This document shows, piece after piece, positions 6,913 to 15,298 of a stretch of DNA of 64,000 bases. Numbering within the stretch: position 1 is the first letter of the stretch; every line of letters begins with the position of its first letter. The DNA is from Verrucomicrobiota bacterium (GTDB lineage Bacteria > Verrucomicrobiota > Verrucomicrobiia > Limisphaerales > AAA164-E04), in assembly GCA_047947115.1 (NCBI GenBank), contig CP170459.1, positions 3,744,001 through 3,808,000 on the forward strand, written 5' to 3'. The notes below the pieces were generated by a model, which saw only the letters and a program-made list of their open reading frames with translations, did no database searches and was not told the DNA's origin. A program made the position numbers and the translations under genes.

Positions 6913-7105
6913 ATTCATTTTTTTAACGCCATTTGAAGTGATGCATGGCCGAAATTGCTATCTTTTGTGACCAAAAGAAATCGTTTAGCCCGGTGGCCGA
7001 TTTATCGCGCATTTAATATGCAGAAACCAGTCAAAAAATTTGCAATCTTGTGACTTTTTTGGCGGGTTTATCCCGCGTTGCACGTTTCAATATTGTAATT
7101 CATCT

Positions 7106-8803
7106 ATGAAAAATACAAGACTTCTCATAATTTATACACTATTAGCCACTTTGTTGGCAAGCTGCGCTACAACGAACCAGACTTCGACCGAAATTGCCGC
7201 ACCGAAAGCAGAACAAAATCAACAAACCACACCGGCCGAAGAAGTTCCTTATTCGGTTCGCTTAAAGCAAGCAAGGCAACCGTACGGATTTGTCCTATTC
7301 CAGAGCATGGATGTTGCTGATGGAATGGAGAAACAATATCTAAGGGTTGAAAAGGAGTGGCTTAAAATCCACGAACATTTGGCCAAGCAGGGAAAAATCC
7401 TTTCCTGGGGCCTGGCCAAAGCCAGAGAGAATAGTCTTGGTTATGAATACGTAACCTGGAAGACGTTTAGGTCACTAAAGGACCTAGAGGCAACTTACGA
7501 TTGGGACGAATTAGGAAAGTGGATGGGACAAGAAAAATTAGATCTGCTTTTCGAAAAGACAAATGAGGCAAGAACGATAACTGGAAGTCAAGTCCTGCGG
7601 CTGCGCGACTACGCTCAAATGCCCTTATCCCAGACAAGCATTTTTGAGAACCTCTCACCACAAGACATCTCATTCAGGTTAAATTTCCTCGCCCCAACAC
7701 CTGGAAAAAGAGCCAAATATTTGGAGATTGTCGAAAAGGCATACAGTCCATTGTTTGAGAAAAGGGCCGAGATAGACAAAACTTTCCTCGGCTGGGAATA
7801 TCAGGAGCTCATGTATTACAATGGCCAGGGCAACACAGAGCCATTTAGAGGAATAGATATTTTTAGAAATGACATCCCAGAGCTGACAGAAGCTGAGCAA
7901 GAAATCGTAAATGCTGAACTCCCAAGCTGGCCGGAGGATATCTACCCAATGTCAAAGCGCGGGGAGTTACGGACTATGACTACCGTCACCTTCGATATTG
8001 TGCAGGTCATCATGCAAAATGCTGAATCGACTCTCATGAATGAGCTAGTTGGCACTTGGACACACACAAACCCTGATGGCTCATACCGAACAAAAACAGT
8101 TACTCCTTATGCTGAGCAACTCAGTTTTTTCGCTTCAGATGGAACTCTTTTGCAGAAAAGGCAGCCTATTCCCTTGCGCATCGAAGCAAGCAACAAATTG
8201 ACTAGGTTCACGGGCTTTTTCCCAAATGGAAAAACATGGAATGCGTCCATACAAATTCACGATGGAAAATGGTATGAGCAGGATAGAGCCTTCACCGACC
8301 TCGAACAGTTTGATGGTGTTTATCCAGCGGCGCCCGATGCCTACTTCGTCTACGAAAAGTCAGCAGAACCGGCTCAAAGAAATCTTGCTGCCTACGACAA
8401 TTCTGAGGAAGGCACGGCCCTAATTCGAAACATCGTAGAATCATATGCCAAGGGTGATTTCAAAAAACTTCGTAGCTACTTTAGTGATGATGCAAAAGTT
8501 GTTCACAACCAATGGGGACCAGCCGCCGAAGGAATAACTATCGATGAGCTAATTGAGACTCATAAAAAACACCATGCCACACTTGCAAAACCTGTCGAAG
8601 TCCTGAATAGCATCTACGAAGCGGTCACATTGCCAAATGGCGGCAAACATGCACATGGATGGATTAACATGCGTAATACAACCAAATCAGGAGAAGTCAC
8701 AGACACCAACGTTTTCGTCGCATTTGGTGTAGGAAATGATGGCAAAGCCACCTATGAATGGGCTCTTTTCGACCCGGCAGGAATACCATCATACCAAAAG
8801 TAG
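7106..8803 (+). CDS. Lipoprotein: NIPSNAP-like region + lipocalin-like + SnoaL domain (paralog of 2790..4460)
   Basis: ATG at 7106 gives MKNTRLLIIYTLLATLLASC (lipobox LASC). Shares motifs with 2790..4460 and 11649..13733. Confidence 0.8.
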   Translation: MKNTRLLIIYTLLATLLASCATTNQTSTEIAAPKAEQNQQTTPAEEVPYSVRLKQARQPYGFVLFQSMDVADGMEKQYLRVEKEWLKIHEHLAKQGKILSWGLAKARENSLGYEYVTWKTFRSLKDLEATYDWDELGKWMGQEKLDLLFEKTNEARTITGSQVLRLRDYAQMPLSQTSIFENLSPQDISFRLNFLAPTPGKRAKYLEIVEKAYSPLFEKRAEIDKTFLGWEYQELMYYNGQGNTEPFRGIDIFRNDIPELTEAEQEIVNAELPSWPEDIYPMSKRGELRTMTTVTFDIVQVIMQNAESTLMNELVGTWTHTNPDGSYRTKTVTPYAEQLSFFASDGTLLQKRQPIPLRIEASNKLTRFTGFFPNGKTWNASIQIHDGKWYEQDRAFTDLEQFDGVYPAAPDAYFVYEKSAEPAQRNLAAYDNSEEGTALIRNIVESYAKGDFKKLRSYFSDDAKVVHNQWGPAAEGITIDELIETHKKHHATLAKPVEVLNSIYEAVTLPNGGKHAHGWINMRNTTKSGEVTDTNVFVAFGVGNDGKATYEWALFDPAGIPSYQK

Positions 8804-8871: not shown

Positions 8872-10119
8872 TGCCTGGGACCCCTGCATTAAGTCCACCT
8901 TGAGTGATAGGATTTTCCAGCTAAGAAAGGAAAATCCTAATGAAAAAGACACGTAGATCGCCCGAACAGATTATCCGCATCCTTCGTGACAGCGAAGGAC
9001 TGAGTGTGGATGAAGCCTGTCGCAGGCATGAGATCAGCGCGCCAACCTACCACCGCTGGAAAGCGAAGTATGGTGGAATGGGCGTCAAGGAAGCCCAGAG
9101 GCTGAGAAATATTGAGAAAGAGAACTCGGAGCTGAAGAAGATACTGGCCGAGCAGATGCTCAAATCCAAGGCACTGGAGATTGCTCTAGAAAAAAACCTC
9201 TGAGCCCGGAGCGTCGGCGTCGTATGGCTCTGAAGATTCAGGAGACGCTGTCATGTTCCGGGCGAAGTGTCTGTCGCTGGCTGGGATTGAATCGCAGCAC
9301 ACTGCGTTACGCTCCCAGGGCAGTGCCGGACAAGAAGAAGCTGCTTGAAGCGGTGATCGTGAAGATGTCGAAGAAGTATCCCTGCTTCGGCTATCGCAAG
9401 ATCACGCGTAAGCTGGTCGAGCAAGGCTGGGCCGTGGGCAAGAAGCTGGTGCAGCGTGTGCGTGAGGAGTGTTTAAAGGTGCCTGCTCCCAAGCCGCGCA
9501 AACGCCGTCAGGGCATCTCTACCGGGCTTCCTCAGCAGGCGAAGCATCGAAATCGTGTCTGGGCGTGGGACTTGGTTAGCGACCATACGGTGCTTGGAGG
9601 GAAACTGCGGGGCTTGAATCTGATCGACGAGTTTACGAAGGAATGCCACTGCATCCACTCTGACCGTGCGATCAAGGCAACGGACGTGCTGAGCATCCTC
9701 GAAGAAGCCATTAAGGAACATGGTGCACCCGAGTATATCCGCTCGGACAACGGGCAAGAGTTTATTGCTACAGCGATTCAGCAGTGGCTCCGGGATAGAA
9801 GGATCAAGACGATCTATATTGACCCTGGATGTCCTTGGCAGAACGGCTACTTGGAGAGCTTTAACGATAAGTTCCGCCGCGAGTGCCTGAACCGTGAACT
9901 AATCTAAACGTTGAGTGAATCCCGCGTCATCTTCGCCGATTACCGGCATCTTCATAACTACGAAAGACCGCATCGCTCTCTGGCTTGCTCACGCCCCAAG
10001 CGTATGCCAAACAACTTACCTACCTCTCTGGCCTCGGTCGGGCTACACCCTCCCTCAGACAGAGAGGCGGTCAACCGCAACCTAAATCACAAGTAAACAC
10101 CTGGAAAAAACCACTTGGA
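8872..10119 (+). mobile_element. IS3-family (IS407-like) element, orfB inactivated, right end replaced by next IS
   Basis: IRL TGCCTGGGACCCCTGCATTAAGTCCACC. orfA 8940..9203 with an A7C slippery run. orfB to 9907 (WAWD, SDNG, PWQNGYLESFN) ends at a premature TAA; the YERPHRSL tail follows the stop. Confidence 0.9.
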
Positions 10120-10195
10120 TGTAGTGCCCCCCAAAAAAGGGACCAGTAGTTAAGAGAGATTTTTCCGGTGTCAGAGAGTAAAATCGAGACACCAA

Positions 10196-10492
10196 ATGAA
10201 AGCAAAACGCAAACGATACGACGCCCAGTTCAAAGCCAAAATCGGCTTTGAAGCCATCCGTGGAATCAAGACGGTTCAGCAGATCGCCAAGGAAAACCAG
10301 ATCCATCCGACACAGGTGAATCAATGGAAGCAGATCCTCATTGAAGATGCTTCAAGTTTGTTTGAGGGGAAGCGTCCATCTCAGGACCAGGACGATTGGG
10401 CGAATGAACGAGACCGACTCCATGCCAAGATCGGGCAGCAAAGCGTTGAGATCGATTGGTTGGCAAAAAAGTGCAAGCAACTGCATCTCTAA
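10196..10492 (+). CDS. IS3 transposase OrfA
   Basis: HTH motif (FKAKIGFEAIRG...IHPTQVNQWK). A_AAA_AAG slippery site at 10465-10471. Confidence 0.9.
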   Translation: MKAKRKRYDAQFKAKIGFEAIRGIKTVQQIAKENQIHPTQVNQWKQILIEDASSLFEGKRPSQDQDDWANERDRLHAKIGQQSVEIDWLAKKCKQLHL

Positions 10493-11373
10493 CCGAGCGT
10501 CGGGCGATGGTCGTAAAAGGCCATCGCCAGATCAGTTTGAGAAGGCAGTGTGAACTTTTGAATATTAGTCGTAGCAAGGTTTTCTACCAAGGCGCTCAGG
10601 AATCGGAAGAGAACCTCCACTACATGCGATTGATCGATGAGATCTATATGGATCAACCCGTTTACGGGTATCGCCGAATGACAGCGGTGCTGCAACGGAT
10701 GGGGTTTCAGGTCAATGAAAAGCGAATTCAACGGCTGATGAGGTTGATGGGATTGGAGGCCGTTTATCCAAAACCAAGAACCAGCATCCCCATGCCAGGC
10801 CACAAAAAGTATCCATACCTTTTGCGGAACCGAAAACCCACCGGCCCCAATCAAGTATGGAGCATGGATATTACATATATTCCTATGAAAATGGGATTTA
10901 TGTATCTGATGGCCGTTATGGATTGGTGGAGTCGTTTGGTGATCACGTGGGAATTATCCAACACGATGGAAGCTGAGATTTGTGCCAAGACAGCAGGTGT
11001 TGGACTGAGTGCAAGCAAGCATACTCCTCTGATTTTTAACGTGGATCAGGGCAGCCAATTTACCAGCAACGTTTTCATTGATACGATCGAGTCATACGCA
11101 GTGAAGGTAAGCATGGACGGCCGTGGACGTGCATTGGACAACGTCTTTATCGAACGCTTATGGCGTAGCATTAAGTATGAGGACATATACCTTCGTGGCT
11201 ACGAGGATGGGCTCTGCCTGCACCAAGGATTAGAGAGGTGGTTCGACCACTACAACAATCACCGGCCTCACCAAGCGCTTGATTACGCCACGCCATGGGA
11301 GTGGCATTTCACCGCCCAGAAATATGGAGCGACAATCCCGACTTGGATCGACGAGGAGGAACTCAAAATCTAA
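10456..11373 (+). CDS. IS3 transposase OrfB (DDE), fused to OrfA by programmed -1 frameshift
   Basis: Motifs YGYRRMT, WSMDITY, DQGSQFTS, DNVFIERLWRSIKYE and YNNHRPHQALDYATP. Confidence 0.92.
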   Translation: MVGKKVQATASLTERRAMVVKGHRQISLRRQCELLNISRSKVFYQGAQESEENLHYMRLIDEIYMDQPVYGYRRMTAVLQRMGFQVNEKRIQRLMRLMGLEAVYPKPRTSIPMPGHKKYPYLLRNRKPTGPNQVWSMDITYIPMKMGFMYLMAVMDWWSRLVITWELSNTMEAEICAKTAGVGLSASKHTPLIFNVDQGSQFTSNVFIDTIESYAVKVSMDGRGRALDNVFIERLWRSIKYEDIYLRGYEDGLCLHQGLERWFDHYNNHRPHQALDYATPWEWHFTAQKYGATIPTWIDEEELKI

Positions 11374-11648: not shown

Positions 11649-13733
11649 CTATAACTTTTCGTAAATCAAAAATTTGGTAGGTTCCCCACTACTATCGCGC
11701 CAAATACCCCGCATCTGTTCATACCATTTATTATCCTTAATCTTATATATCGAATGATACGTTCCATTTGCGTGAAAGGAGTAGAAATGATTCAAACCAC
11801 CCTTGACTTCAATTTTCATCGGCAAGATAAACTTACTTTTTAAAAGACCATCGGAATCATAAAGTTCCAATTGTTCGGTTCCTTGCGTGATATGCTTGAT
11901 GCGATAACTACCATCCTCATTGGTATGCTTCCAAGAACCCTTTAATTTTTTCCATTCATTTTTCACAGGATGAAATTCATGGTTAGCCTTTATAAGGATC
12001 TCAAACTGGGGACCGCTCGCCATTTTCCGCAACTCACCCCACTCAACATTAGGCTTGTTAAGAATACTCATTGCTTTTTGGGTGGTAGATTGCCAAGCAC
12101 TTTCACCAGGAAGACTCTCCGCGCTTTTAAAATGTGCAGTAACAAAATCATGGGTTATACCTGATCGATTAGACTCGATTAGGCGATGTAATGCCCACCC
12201 CCCAAAAGTCGGATCCATGCTTGAAACAATTTGCCAAAATGGTTTTGCCATGTTCATTTCTGCAAAAAGGTAGTCCTGAATTTTACCAGGTTGCACATTC
12301 ATATAGCCCATGTTGATTTGCCGGATATCCATGCCTCCTGAATTAGGCGACCAATATTGATCGACAGCCTGATAAATATCACTTCCGGCAGATTGAACAT
12401 AAGGCCATGTCCTTTCTCCTAAATCTGCTCTACTGCCAACAGCTGAATAATCCAACGTGTCCCATATAGAACCGTTTTGCATATCTTCCATCGACGCATA
12501 CACCTGCACGGTAGCGTAGTTTGGCTCACCCATATTTGCGTTTTTTATTTTGGCCACATGCCAATGAAGCAAGCTACCTCTTTGCATTCTCTGTTCGTGA
12601 AGTCCTTTCCATTCCTCTTCAGCAGCGAGATATGATTGAACGTCTTGGTCGGCAACTATTTTAAAATCTGTCTTAATGTAACCCGTAAATCTTTGGGATT
12701 CTTTTGTCCTTTGAAAATATGAACGTTTAGTCTTAGCGTTACTATCTTCAGCATTATCAATATTAGCATTTTGTTTTCTTTTAAGTATATAACCGCCAAC
12801 AACATCTGTGTAAATGCCGTTATCTTTTGACTGCCATTTGGCATGTATTTCATTTAAACTAAGGAAAGACCTAACTAGACGACTATCACCCTGACGTTGT
12901 CCTGTGGTCATGCTCCCCATGAAATCCCAGCCGCCAACTTGAGAAAAACCATTTTTAGTTATGCTATACATCACGAGCTCTCCATTTGCGTGATTTCTCC
13001 GAGTTAGGTTGTAACCGCCACCGGTGGGGTTACCCTCTTCATCGAAAAAAACGAATCTCTCATGAAGACTTGCCCCGAGATCAAATTCCCGAAATAGAAT
13101 TTTCAAATTAACATTTCCCGACTCACCAATGGATTCCCAAGACCCATGAAGATCTTCTAATCTTGGGTCTAATGTTTTTATTTTATTTTTGGCCCATACA
13201 ACTTCGCCTTTATCTCCGGGGTTATAGTCAATTTTTTGTGCTTCGATACTTGGAGTCTTTTCAATATACGATTTATCAAAGCCAATAACATTCACTGAGT
13301 ACTCTGAGAATTTGTCCCGCTTTTTATTCCAAGATAACTCAATTTGCCCTGAGACATTGCCATTCTCAGACGATCCTGAGAAGGTGACGACGCTTCCTTT
13401 GTCTTCAAACCTTTCGGTTGATCGTCCCAATCGGCCATTGGAGTCAGCCCAAAGTCTGTCTCCAATTTGATTATTTTGAATAGTTTGAAATGCACTCCAA
13501 GCTGATACAGGCTCAAGAGTTTCCGGATCGATACTAACGTGAGCTACCCGTTGCAAACCAACTACACCGTCCGTCCAATACCATCTGAAACCTTGACGCT
13601 TAGTTCCATCTTCATCTACGGAATGCCACTTCCATGCCCCATCTAGCGGGTGTTTTGAAATTTCTTGGGCATCGACTTCCACAAACGTACTTACCAATAT
13701 TAAGGCAATGCCTAGTATTTGAATGTTTTTCAT
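11649..13733 (-). CDS. Secreted mosaic protein: beta-barrel pair (as in 903..2705) + NIPSNAP-like + lipocalin-like domain (as in 7106..8803)
   Basis: Signal peptide from ATG 13733 (MKNIQILGIALILVSTFVEVDA). Motifs ERFVFFDEEG..GGWDF..QRQGDSRLVR, YLAAEEEWKGLHE and GSWKHTNEDGSYRIK..KWYEQ. Visibly AT-rich. Confidence 0.8.
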   Translation of the reverse strand: MKNIQILGIALILVSTFVEVDAQEISKHPLDGAWKWHSVDEDGTKRQGFRWYWTDGVVGLQRVAHVSIDPETLEPVSAWSAFQTIQNNQIGDRLWADSNGRLGRSTERFEDKGSVVTFSGSSENGNVSGQIELSWNKKRDKFSEYSVNVIGFDKSYIEKTPSIEAQKIDYNPGDKGEVVWAKNKIKTLDPRLEDLHGSWESIGESGNVNLKILFREFDLGASLHERFVFFDEEGNPTGGGYNLTRRNHANGELVMYSITKNGFSQVGGWDFMGSMTTGQRQGDSRLVRSFLSLNEIHAKWQSKDNGIYTDVVGGYILKRKQNANIDNAEDSNAKTKRSYFQRTKESQRFTGYIKTDFKIVADQDVQSYLAAEEEWKGLHEQRMQRGSLLHWHVAKIKNANMGEPNYATVQVYASMEDMQNGSIWDTLDYSAVGSRADLGERTWPYVQSAGSDIYQAVDQYWSPNSGGMDIRQINMGYMNVQPGKIQDYLFAEMNMAKPFWQIVSSMDPTFGGWALHRLIESNRSGITHDFVTAHFKSAESLPGESAWQSTTQKAMSILNKPNVEWGELRKMASGPQFEILIKANHEFHPVKNEWKKLKGSWKHTNEDGSYRIKHITQGTEQLELYDSDGLLKSKFILPMKIEVKGGLNHFYSFHANGTYHSIYKIKDNKWYEQMRGIWRDSSGEPTKFLIYEKL

Positions 13734-14023
13734 TTTTTTACGATATCTTGTTGGGTTCAGGGCATTGTTGGATTTTGCTGCAACTGAAATGCTTTTTTCG
13801 TTGTTAGTAACATTTACGTAGGTTCCCCAAAAAGACGAAACCAAATTAGCCCATTTTTCTTTACACGTATTAATGTCTCGAAGGGCGACATAATTTTTTA
13901 TTTTTTGGGCAGACCAATGTCAAAGGTCTCTTTAAGAAACGGATGGACGGTTTAGGGCCGCGCATTTGCTCAACAATCGAGGAGGCGCCATCTACACCAG
14001 CGAGCGAGCAGACCAAGCTGTCC

Positions 14024-14482
14024 TGCCTGGGACCCCTGAATTAAGTCCACCTTGAGTAATAGGGTTTTCCAGCTAAGAAAGGAAAATCCTAATGAAAAAG
14101 ACACGTAGATCGACCGAACAGATTATCCGCATCCTTCGTGACAGCGAAGGACTAAGTGTGGATGAAGCCTGCCGCAGGCATGAGCTCAGCACACCAACCT
14201 ACCACCGCTGGAAAGCGAAGTATGGTGGAATGTGCATCAAGGAAGCCCAGAGGCTGAGAGATATTGATAAAGAGAACTCGGAGCTGAAGAAGCTATTGGC
14301 CGAGCAGATGCTCAAATCCAAGGTACTGGAGATTGCTCTAGAAAAAAAACCTCTGAGCCCGGGGCGTCGGCGTCGTATGGCTCTGAAGATTCAGTAAGCG
14401 ATGTCATGCTCCGGGCGAAGTGTCTGTCGCTGGTTGGGATTGAACCGCAGCACACTGCGTTACGCTCCCAGGGCAGTGCCGG
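14024..14482 (+). mobile_element. Truncated near-identical copy of the IS at 8872 (IRL, orfA, start of orfB)
   Basis: Aligns with 8872..~9329 with scattered substitutions. An extra A in the slippery run and a TAA at 14395. Similarity stops after GGGCAGTGCCGG. Confidence 0.92.
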
Positions 14483-14802
14483 CCGTCGACTTTCTGGCCC
14501 AAGTTGAGTGAGTAGTTAGGGTGATCCATTTTGGGGTTAGGAATAGTGGGCTAGAATCTTTATGAGTAGAAGAAATTAAGCGATTTTTAACTAGCTTGAT
14601 ATCACATCTGAAAGGCCTTAATTGATACCTAATCAACCCGTGATCGCTTCAGAAATTGGTAAAGTTGGCGTCAGAAGTTTTGCCTTTTTCTCGTAAAATG
14701 ATTCCTTTTAGGCCATACAAGACCCATACGCTAAATTAAGTTTTTCTGTGTTCCTATCGGGTTAGGGTAATCAAAAACCATTAAAAATTACAGGGTTAGA
14801 AG

Positions 14803-14873
14803 TGGAGCCAGCTGTCGGGGTCTAACCGACGACCGACGGTTTATCCCGACGCGTCGGGACTCAACCACTGAGC
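14803..14873 (-). repeat. Rebuilt partial copy of tRNA-Thr: D-arm (14860-14873) + 16-bp palindrome (14844-14859) + 3' half to CCA (14803-14843)
   Basis: 40/41 match to 15130-15170 and 13/14 match to 15182-15195. TCCCGACGCGTCGGGA is its own reverse complement. Confidence 0.95.
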
Positions 14874-15112
14874 AGGACTTCTCGAATCCATTTAGCGGAT
14901 TTCATTCGCTTGATTTGCCGTTCACGTGCCATTGCGCATGCTCTTGTAGGATGTTCCTCTGACCAAACCAAATTCCAGGGGCCATTTTTGGGGGTGAAGC
15001 GTGTGCCAGGTTCGTTGGGGTCGTTATGGATTTGGATGCGCCTCGTCAGATCCTCAGTATGGCCTATATAAAATTTACCATCTAAGTTCTCTAGAATGTA
15101 TGTCCAAAACAT
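14861..15112 (-). CDS. Small stand-alone GIY-YIG nuclease family protein (83 aa)
   Basis: WTYILE..GKFYIGHTEDLTRRIQIHN..RFT..GPWNLVWSE..AMARERQIK, which carries the YIG, R, HN and E catalytic motifs. ATG lies 17 nt after the tRNA CCA. Confidence 0.9.
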   Translation of the reverse strand: MFWTYILENLDGKFYIGHTEDLTRRIQIHNDPNEPGTRFTPKNGPWNLVWSEEHPTRACAMARERQIKRMKSAKWIREVLLSG

Positions 15113-15129
15113 GGAAGGGAGGGGATAAA

Positions 15130-15204
15130 TGGAGCCAGCTGTCGGGGTCGAACCGACGACCGACGGTTTACAAAACCGTTGCTCTACCACTGAGCTAAGC
15201 TGGC
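15130..15204 (-). tRNA. tRNA-Thr(TGT)
   Basis: GCCAGCT TA GCTC AGTGGTA GAGC A ACGGT TTTGTAA ACCGT CGGTC GTCGG TTCGACC CCGAC AGCTGGC T CCA folds as a full cloverleaf with encoded CCA. Confidence 0.97.
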
Positions 15205-15298
15205 CTTTGAAGGTGAATTGTTGTGGGGAGCTTGTATTTACTACCCGAACACGCGGTCCATTGTAGGAGAGATTTTTTTTGAATCAAGCCCTTTTCGA

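Follow-up and report, generated by a model that had tools for sequence, protein, structure and literature searches.

A small gene for a single-domain GIY-YIG nuclease and a 16-nt palindromic hairpin, here called the plug, probably constitute a minimal selfish element, in which the nuclease would act on single-stranded DNA hairpins in the manner of Ssn and the plug would serve as its recognition signal. The underlying layout of a tRNA gene, a nuclease gene and a plug is real and widespread. It is apparently undescribed; no description was found in the literature, of which subscription journals and supplements, notably that of PMC11893778, could hold one. The unit was identified in a window of 64,000 nt, which is the whole stretch of DNA that was analysed. 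An earlier note on this DNA, made from the sequence alone, had listed a tRNA, a spacer, an open reading frame, a D-arm copy, a palindrome and a tRNA 3' half, and all of them are present where the note had placed them:

15260..15287, minus strand: candidate sigma-70-like tRNA promoter, TTGATT-16 nt-TACAAT, picked out by eye
15130..15204, minus strand: intact tRNA-Thr(TGT) (ARAGORN), host gene and homology anchor
15171..15181, minus strand: tRNA nt 24-34, CAA-CGGTT-TTG (CAACGGTTTTG), a 3-bp mini-hairpin that is replaced by the plug in the copy
15113..15129, minus strand: pyrimidine-rich 17-nt spacer between tRNA-Thr and the nuclease ORF
14861..15112, minus strand: P0001 gene, 83-aa single-domain GIY-YIG nuclease (ORF and PF01541)
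14860..14873, minus strand: copy of tRNA nt 10-23, GCTCAGTGGTTGAG, 13/14 identical
14844..14859, minus strand: plug, 16-nt perfect palindrome TCCCGACGCGTCGGGA of the Asn-clade type, replacing tRNA nt 24-34
14803..14843, minus strand: copy of tRNA nt 35-75 through CCA, 40/41 identical (E 3e-13 in the 6.08-Mb genome)

According to ARAGORN, tRNA-Thr(TGT) is the sole tRNA of the window and the sole Thr-TGT gene of the genome. Read-through from the candidate promoter would bring about transcription of the nuclease gene as well; no Shine-Dalgarno sequence is visible in the 17-nt spacer ahead of the P0001 gene. The intact tRNA and its copy are offset by 327 bp, and this interval contains the GIY-YIG ORF only and no integrase. 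The final codons of P0001, including its TGA stop, lie within the copy of tRNA nt 10-23, and a check of the sequence bore out the claim that the A>T mismatch in this D-arm copy creates the stop. The T-loop change TTCGA>TTAGA in the copy makes a second in-frame stop. The copy is devoid of tRNA nt 1-9, so that its cloverleaf cannot close, and the plug was computed to fold as a DNA stem of 7 bp.

The tRNA-Thr unit is not an assembly artefact, since four environmental DNA runs from four studies contain it, three of them in full and the fourth without the tRNA-adjacent stretch. A 376-nt environmental contig extends from the downstream flank through the plug. The TGA stop is the same in all four runs, the TTCGA>TTAGA change is missing in three of the four, and the copy of tRNA nt 35-75 is 41/41 identical in three environmental runs. 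A joint skipping the unit was not found in the contigs of the four DNA runs, which show presence only; this counts against the selfish-unit reading. The runs differ from the ORF at five sites, each of them a first or second codon position, which hints at a weak constraint on P0001 and likewise counts against that reading. Downstream of the unit, IS3-like transposase genes and fragments were observed at window positions 8940-11373 and 14092-14500, and the read coverage in the DNA runs forks near 14453-14523. Two unannotated secreted-looking proteins, at 7040-8803 (plus strand) and 11649-13844 (minus strand), face each other across the IS elements and have motifs in common, for example G.W.HTN.DGSYR.K.

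P0001 matches the Pfam GIY-YIG model PF01541 over residues 1-73 of 83 (E 1.3e-17, 64.3 bits, cut-off 22.6). Among 22 aligned homologs Y5, Y15, G17, R25, H29 and E64 are invariant, and the catalytic Tyr, Arg, His and Glu of the GIY-YIG superfamily are present. The nearest solved relatives are UPF0213 (1zg2, 1ywl) and Slx1 (profile E 2.5e-15). Prokaryotic stand-alone Slx1-like or UPF0213 proteins consist of the same minimal domain, and Slx1 cuts at branch junctions; however, in the accessible part of PMC1564403 the stand-alone proteins are described as predicted repair enzymes, and neither linkage to tRNA genes nor hairpins are mentioned there. The 83-aa P0001 has no C-terminal DNA-binding domain beyond the nuclease domain, and with the group I intron endonuclease model TIGR01453 it reaches 15.1 bits, below the cut-off of 56.05. 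On these grounds, membership in the Seg-type or intron GIY-YIG homing endonucleases was rejected.

A closer functional parallel is offered by SsnA from Neisseria meningitidis (CDD cd10448), as described in the accessible part of PMC11893778. Here, too, a small single-domain GIY-YIG gene lies beside its own GC-rich hairpin repeat, and the NTS core of this repeat, which is dispersed through the genome, resembles the plug core TCCCG..CGGGA. Both proteins are single domains of less than 150 aa. It was shown that SsnA binds the hairpin repeat and cleaves single-stranded DNA on the upstream side of this repeat, that it needs both sequence and structure, and that it is inactive on double-stranded DNA and RNA; a mobile origin was suggested by the authors for the Ssn system (PMC11893778). 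In contrast, the P0001 family is lodged in tRNA genes and forms tandem arrays, its hairpin replaces host hairpins, and it has no CGTC-type leader. The word "tRNA" occurs 0 times in the main text of PMC11893778. The SRM motif, searched for with the degenerate pattern of that paper, is present neither at the Thr unit nor within 500 nt at any of 223 loci (0/223); the pattern is a strict one, since the five Ssn-like proxy loci L244-L248 are also without a match. As judged by proxy proteins from exact-NTS loci and not by SsnA itself, the Ssn clade (six exact-NTS-locus proteins and five similar ones) has a support of 98, and P0001 falls into a separate clade with a support of 96. On the profile of the proxy proteins P0001 reaches 34.5 bits, compared to 84-183 for these proteins themselves. 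Membership in Ssn was therefore rejected by tree, profile and SRM test, tree and profile being based on the proxy proteins. By analogy, the P0001 unit likely works in an Ssn/SRM-like and partly in a SegB-like manner, being a member of neither.

Relatives of P0001 are linked to tRNA genes and end in a plugged tRNA copy, as the earlier note had expected of homologs. At 28 GTDB loci of relatives a tRNA was identified in 22 cases, 15 of them with tRNA-Asn(GTT). After removal of 8 redundant entries from 80 metagenome loci, an intact tRNA-Asn was found upstream in 47 of the remaining 72, a strict plug (TCCCG..CGGGA) at the gene end in 58, and a plug together with an Asn-loop piece in 51; tRNA-Thr was found at none of these 72 loci. 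Many metagenome loci without that pattern have an att-like tRNA end, a second plugged copy upstream, or a damaged plug. In three phylum samples, 22/29, 24/29 and 14/29 of the top loci have a tRNA or tmRNA in sense orientation no more than 300 nt away. The 15 of 29 matches in the Patescibacteria sample that have no tRNA nearby count against the selfish-unit reading. One family member lies directly beside tmRNA (L227) and another (L285) directly beside what we take to be an RNase P RNA-like start, which suggests that other stable-RNA genes are also hosts.

Two layouts were identified in the family, with the intact tRNA either upstream, as at the Thr unit, or downstream and overlapping the gene end. 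The tandem multimers that had been proposed do exist: in G496 the array comprises at least 14 units, each about 299 bp long, with the contig ending inside it, and G464 contains 5 plugged units of 382 bp each. Nuclease matches occur in 86/251, 38/81 and 48/81 genomes of the three phylum samples, counts which include non-tRNA relatives; in the order, 13 of 151 genomes match at E<=1e-8, and 6 have an identity of at least 54%. Viral contigs gave 44 matches, 43 of them weak and partial and one of full length (L143), and the nine plasmid records are all only 38-43% identical, which gives no evidence for phage or plasmid carriage. The nuclease family is chromosomal.

In a quick tree of 146 proteins, from which 46 of 192 proteins, about two of three metagenome rows, had been dropped, P0001 is nested in an Asn clade (SH-aLRT 97 and 95) with members from Verrucomicrobiota, Planctomycetota and Acidobacteriota. 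An fMet-linked paralog of the same genome falls into a separate clade (support 99) with a TCCCGC-type plug, and smaller clades are each confined to one of fMet, Met, Pro, Val, Ala, Leu and Arg. The trees comprise 82-84 columns and leave deep forks unresolved; within the quick tree, the plug type tends to follow the protein clade. Other plug types, TGGCGCC..GGCGCCA, CGCCC..GGGCG and TCCGCC..GGCGGA, were observed with other protein clades (L274, L308, L226, L228, L267).

Three parts make up the fMet-linked unit of this genome (C1:3011372-3010973), which lies 41 kb from the real fMet gene: an att-like piece of 47 nt, a gene for a distant GIY-YIG protein, and an fMet copy with TCCCGCGACTGCGGGA in place of CCTGAAGG. 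A plugged fMet copy that has no nuclease gene but an upstream region of its own (C1:3052681-3052607) is located just before the real tRNA-fMet. A third small GIY-YIG gene (C1:1875575-1875781) has neither tRNA nor plug and falls outside the P0001 clade; it is flanked by a different hairpin repeat of the TTCGACTC..CTTCGCTTTGCTCAGC type.

The exact 16-mer of the Thr unit occurs once in the genome. The identical sequence is one of the three commonest among 101 scored plugs, with six occurrences each including the Thr unit, and 47 plugs are located at tRNA-Asn nt 24-33. Dispersed TCCCG..CGGGA hairpins with a perfect stem of at least 6 bp number 63 in the genome, which is the highest count of 40 5-mers of the same composition, the next one reaching 35. 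For the six-base version 33 hairpins were counted versus 0 for the reversed control, the highest value among the 251 genomes of the phylum sample. A dense cluster of about 20 TCCCG..CGGGA matches, mixed with GGTAG-tagged repeats, lies at C1:1343156-1354751 between genes of an apparent sugar-nucleotide or polysaccharide locus. Across the phylum, plug and nuclease co-occur weakly: a nuclease was found in 13 of 28 genomes with at least four plugs, as counted by hand, versus 86 of 251 overall, which counts against the selfish-unit reading.

Plugs also occur in genomes without a nuclease match, as would be expected if the plug were a REP-like element moved in trans by an HUH (RAYT/Y1) transposase, with the GIY-YIG protein as a passenger at tRNA integration sites. 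HUH enzymes are capable of cutting single-stranded hairpins and of joining them again. The genome has five matches to Y1 (HUH) transposases, which favours such a transposase and counts against the selfish-unit reading; moreover, a GGTAG tag lies near 21 of the 63 plugs, and the D loop provides a GTAG at the Thr unit. However, no plug lies within 2.5 kb of any of these five matches, so that RAYT adjacency was rejected; of the nuclease genes, by contrast, 58 of 72 have a plug at their end. The Thr unit contains no Y1 gene, the plug type tracks the nuclease clade, and GTAG does not directly precede the plug at fMet, Ala and Leu sites. Movement by an HUH enzyme is thus rather improbable. The GTAG/CGTC REPs and the RAYT/REPIN systems resemble the plug in that short palindromes are disseminated by a small enzyme which acts on single strands and has its gene close by, and GTAG REPs are known in Verrucomicrobia, according to the accessible part of PMC3733652. 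They differ in that the enzyme at the Thr unit is GIY-YIG and not HUH, and in that the plug enters REP-like repeats by replacement and is not the unit of which they consist. Membership in the REP/RAYT (IS200/IS605-type) systems was rejected, no HUH/Y1 transposase with a plug within 2.5 kb being present.

What the plug replaces was determined by aligning each plugged copy to its local tRNA; the set comprised non-duplicate loci of 55 bits or more whose plugs have a 7-point anchor on either side. The 41 distinct replaced tracts, 3-17 nt long, fall into 24 site classes and sit in the D, anticodon, variable and T regions. A Watson-Crick pair is formed by the tract ends in 41/41 tracts and in 24/24 classes, compared to 6.7 classes expected from the same tRNAs, some of the classes overlapping and not being fully independent. 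When the seven natural cloverleaf arms and one 3-nt tract are excluded, a terminal Watson-Crick pair is found in 16/16 classes versus 4.4 expected. The base pair flanking the tract occurs in 14/24 classes versus 9.2 expected and, being only slightly in excess, is not part of the rule.

The same rule extends to repeats other than tRNA copies. Of the 63 genome plugs, 16 lie in repeat families with at least three unplugged copies; the eight top alleles, two of which belong to one family, represent seven families, and six of the seven obey the rule. Examples of replaced repeat tracts are CGCAG (18 copies), GCTGCGC (18) and CAAGACG (13). Some replaced tracts are GNA-loop mini-hairpins, which are stable in single-stranded DNA. 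Swaps in tRNA copies and in other repeats mark the plug as a mobile hairpin that replaces hairpins, with tRNA copies as one of its homes. The earlier view that the plug takes the place of the anticodon arm is thus correct for the Thr unit and not in general. Near C1:819512, 1643425 and 1952539, a TTCCG..CGGAA hairpin is the alternative allele at plug repeat sites, and a second swapping element is hinted at by these alleles.

No mechanism for this hairpin-for-hairpin rule was found described in the literature. A bolder reading is that the 83-aa protein excises small hairpins at their base and inserts its own 16-nt plug in their place, pair for pair and without homology, which would define a new class of mobile element; it may be correct, yet we consider it doubtful. 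At the Thr site, homology to T(T/A)AACCG would give the same junction, so that homology and the hairpin rule are not distinguished by this one site. We know of no strand-joining step for a GIY-YIG hydrolase, and first-time insertion of a plug is consequently not accounted for by the model.

The usual tRNA of the P0001 clade is Asn, and Thr represents a switch. Among the tRNA-Thr loci of 28 relatives, none has the nuclease gene or a plug. In four genomes of the same genus tRNA-Thr is syntenic upstream and has no unit behind it, with differing downstream flanks; two of these contigs end 73 and 162 nt past the tRNA. These relatives, candidates for the empty sites that had been sought, match on the upstream flank only, which counts against the selfish-unit reading. 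In a second species of the genus (G001), a plugged Thr copy with the plug at the same position lies upstream of tRNA-Thr, and a decayed ortholog of the nuclease gene is found behind a tRNA-Thr att piece. From these Thr-linked relics it follows that the move from Asn to Thr predates the genome studied here. In relatives the ORF frequently extends across the plug and is ended by the TAA that the Asn loop supplies, with GRVPTxRD as C-terminus. The Thr copy is devoid of this TAA, and the A>T change, which is not present in the gene-less plugged Thr copy of G001, gives a stop instead. Judging from the sequence, this stop may reflect selection on protein length after the tRNA switch. Retargeting from tRNA-Asn to tRNA-Thr likely proceeded via the common D arm and T(T/A)AACCG.

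tRNA-Thr also serves as an island site. The 3' end of tRNA-Thr(TGT) recurs 780 kb away as an att-like copy of 53 nt (C1:4538856-4538804). This copy is followed by DNA resembling that directly after tRNA-Thr in G002, and its neighbourhood is a probable integrase island. This would agree with an ordinary att duplication by an integrase, combined with a chance similarity to the D arm, as the origin of the Thr unit. Such an origin is barely conceivable, as there is no integrase within the 327 bp and the D-arm copy, plug and 3' half recur at dozens of loci in the same register, exemplified by the 47 plugs at Asn nt 24-33. An integrase-bounded island was rejected, since no integrase lies between the tRNA copies and the duplicate is not contiguous. 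The homolog survey likewise refuted a plain att scar, in agreement with the earlier note, the duplicate being split by the plug.

A different role for the plug follows from homing of the SegB type, in which the double-stranded DNA of the intact tRNA gene would be the substrate of the nuclease, and the plug a scar that resists cleavage and protects the copy. SegB, a free-standing GIY-YIG enzyme encoded beside tRNA genes in the tRNA clusters of T-even phages, cuts within tRNA genes and drives tandem amplification by recombination, as described in the accessible part of PMC13096335. It differs from the chromosomal P0001 family in being phage-borne, in cutting double-stranded DNA and in having neither plug nor pseudo-tRNA in that part of the source. 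The restriction of each protein clade to one tRNA type, and the arrays, explicable by a break in the intact gene that is repaired again and again, would speak for such homing. On the other hand, P0001 with its 83 aa has no DNA-binding domain and scores 15.1 versus 56.05 bits with the intron endonuclease model, plugs are found at many positions of one tRNA, the donor still has an intact, cuttable tRNA, and a scar needs neither a conserved stem nor a presence in unrelated repeats. SegB-like homing is therefore unlikely. Of the two roles that had been offered for the plug, the conserved, clade-varying stem favours the recognition signal and not the scar.

In an RNA-level module, the nuclease would serve as a toxin or in defence, and the tRNA-like transcript with the plug would act as its decoy or antitoxin, a design known from type III toxin-antitoxin systems. 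The co-orientation behind the tRNA promoter and the repeats adjoining the nuclease gene are consistent with this, and six RNA runs contain an unspecified part (0.17-0.24 of words) of a 1.5-kb stretch. However, the copy without nt 1-9 does not close a cloverleaf, decayed genes survive beside tRNA pieces in G001, and RNA is ignored by SsnA (PMC11893778, accessible part). In addition, the plugs at many tRNA positions and in non-tRNA repeats follow a local hairpin rule and not the tRNA shape. Such a module, whose decoy or antitoxin RNA the earlier note had raised as an alternative, received no support and is very unlikely.

The selfish unit proposed in the earlier note remains the best reading, in view of the tRNA-linked homologs, the arrays, the patchy presence and the exact swaps. 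In the model that we favour, the nuclease gene would be transcribed from the tRNA promoter, and the nuclease would act on single-stranded hairpins like SsnA, binding them and nicking at the stem bases, with the plug as its cognate site; neither an integrase nor a transposase would be involved in spreading the plug. The plug is taken as the recognition site by analogy to SsnA and on account of its conserved, clade-linked stem. A nick in or beside the plugged copy would leave ends homologous to the intact tRNA, and recombination in the course of host repair could then copy spacer, gene and plug into an empty tRNA allele or add another unit. Crossing 3' of the plug would give the layout of the Thr unit, and crossing 5' of it the mirror layout, in which the intact tRNA lies downstream. 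In this way both layouts, gene-less scars and tandem arrays may arise by recombination with the intact gene. Cutting at stem bases would also allow the plug to replace other small hairpins, via a joining step that the model does not name. With the 3' half of the tRNA retained, the unit could be transported at the ends of islands by integrases that target tRNAs. Spread between species thus probably rides on tRNA-integrating islands, with the retained 3' half as att site; att-like pieces lie directly upstream of the nuclease gene in the fMet unit, in G001 and at several loci of relatives.

New in the present analysis are the switch from Asn to Thr with its compensating stop, the counted Watson-Crick rule and the extension of this rule to non-tRNA repeats. 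The hairpin-for-hairpin rule is an unexpected sequence signature that predicts exact cut positions. If the reading as a new class is true, this class would use tRNA genes as promoter, landing pad and amplifier, and its units of about 0.3 kb would be among the smallest autonomous mobile units and a natural editor that swaps hairpins in single-stranded DNA. Two of the natural protein-plug pairs are present in this genome, and such pairs could enlarge the set of site-specific single-strand nucleases that Ssn provides as tools. For the lineages concerned, the element would account for odd pseudo-tRNAs and short palindromes, and it offers a testable role for many stand-alone GIY-YIG genes annotated as hypothetical.
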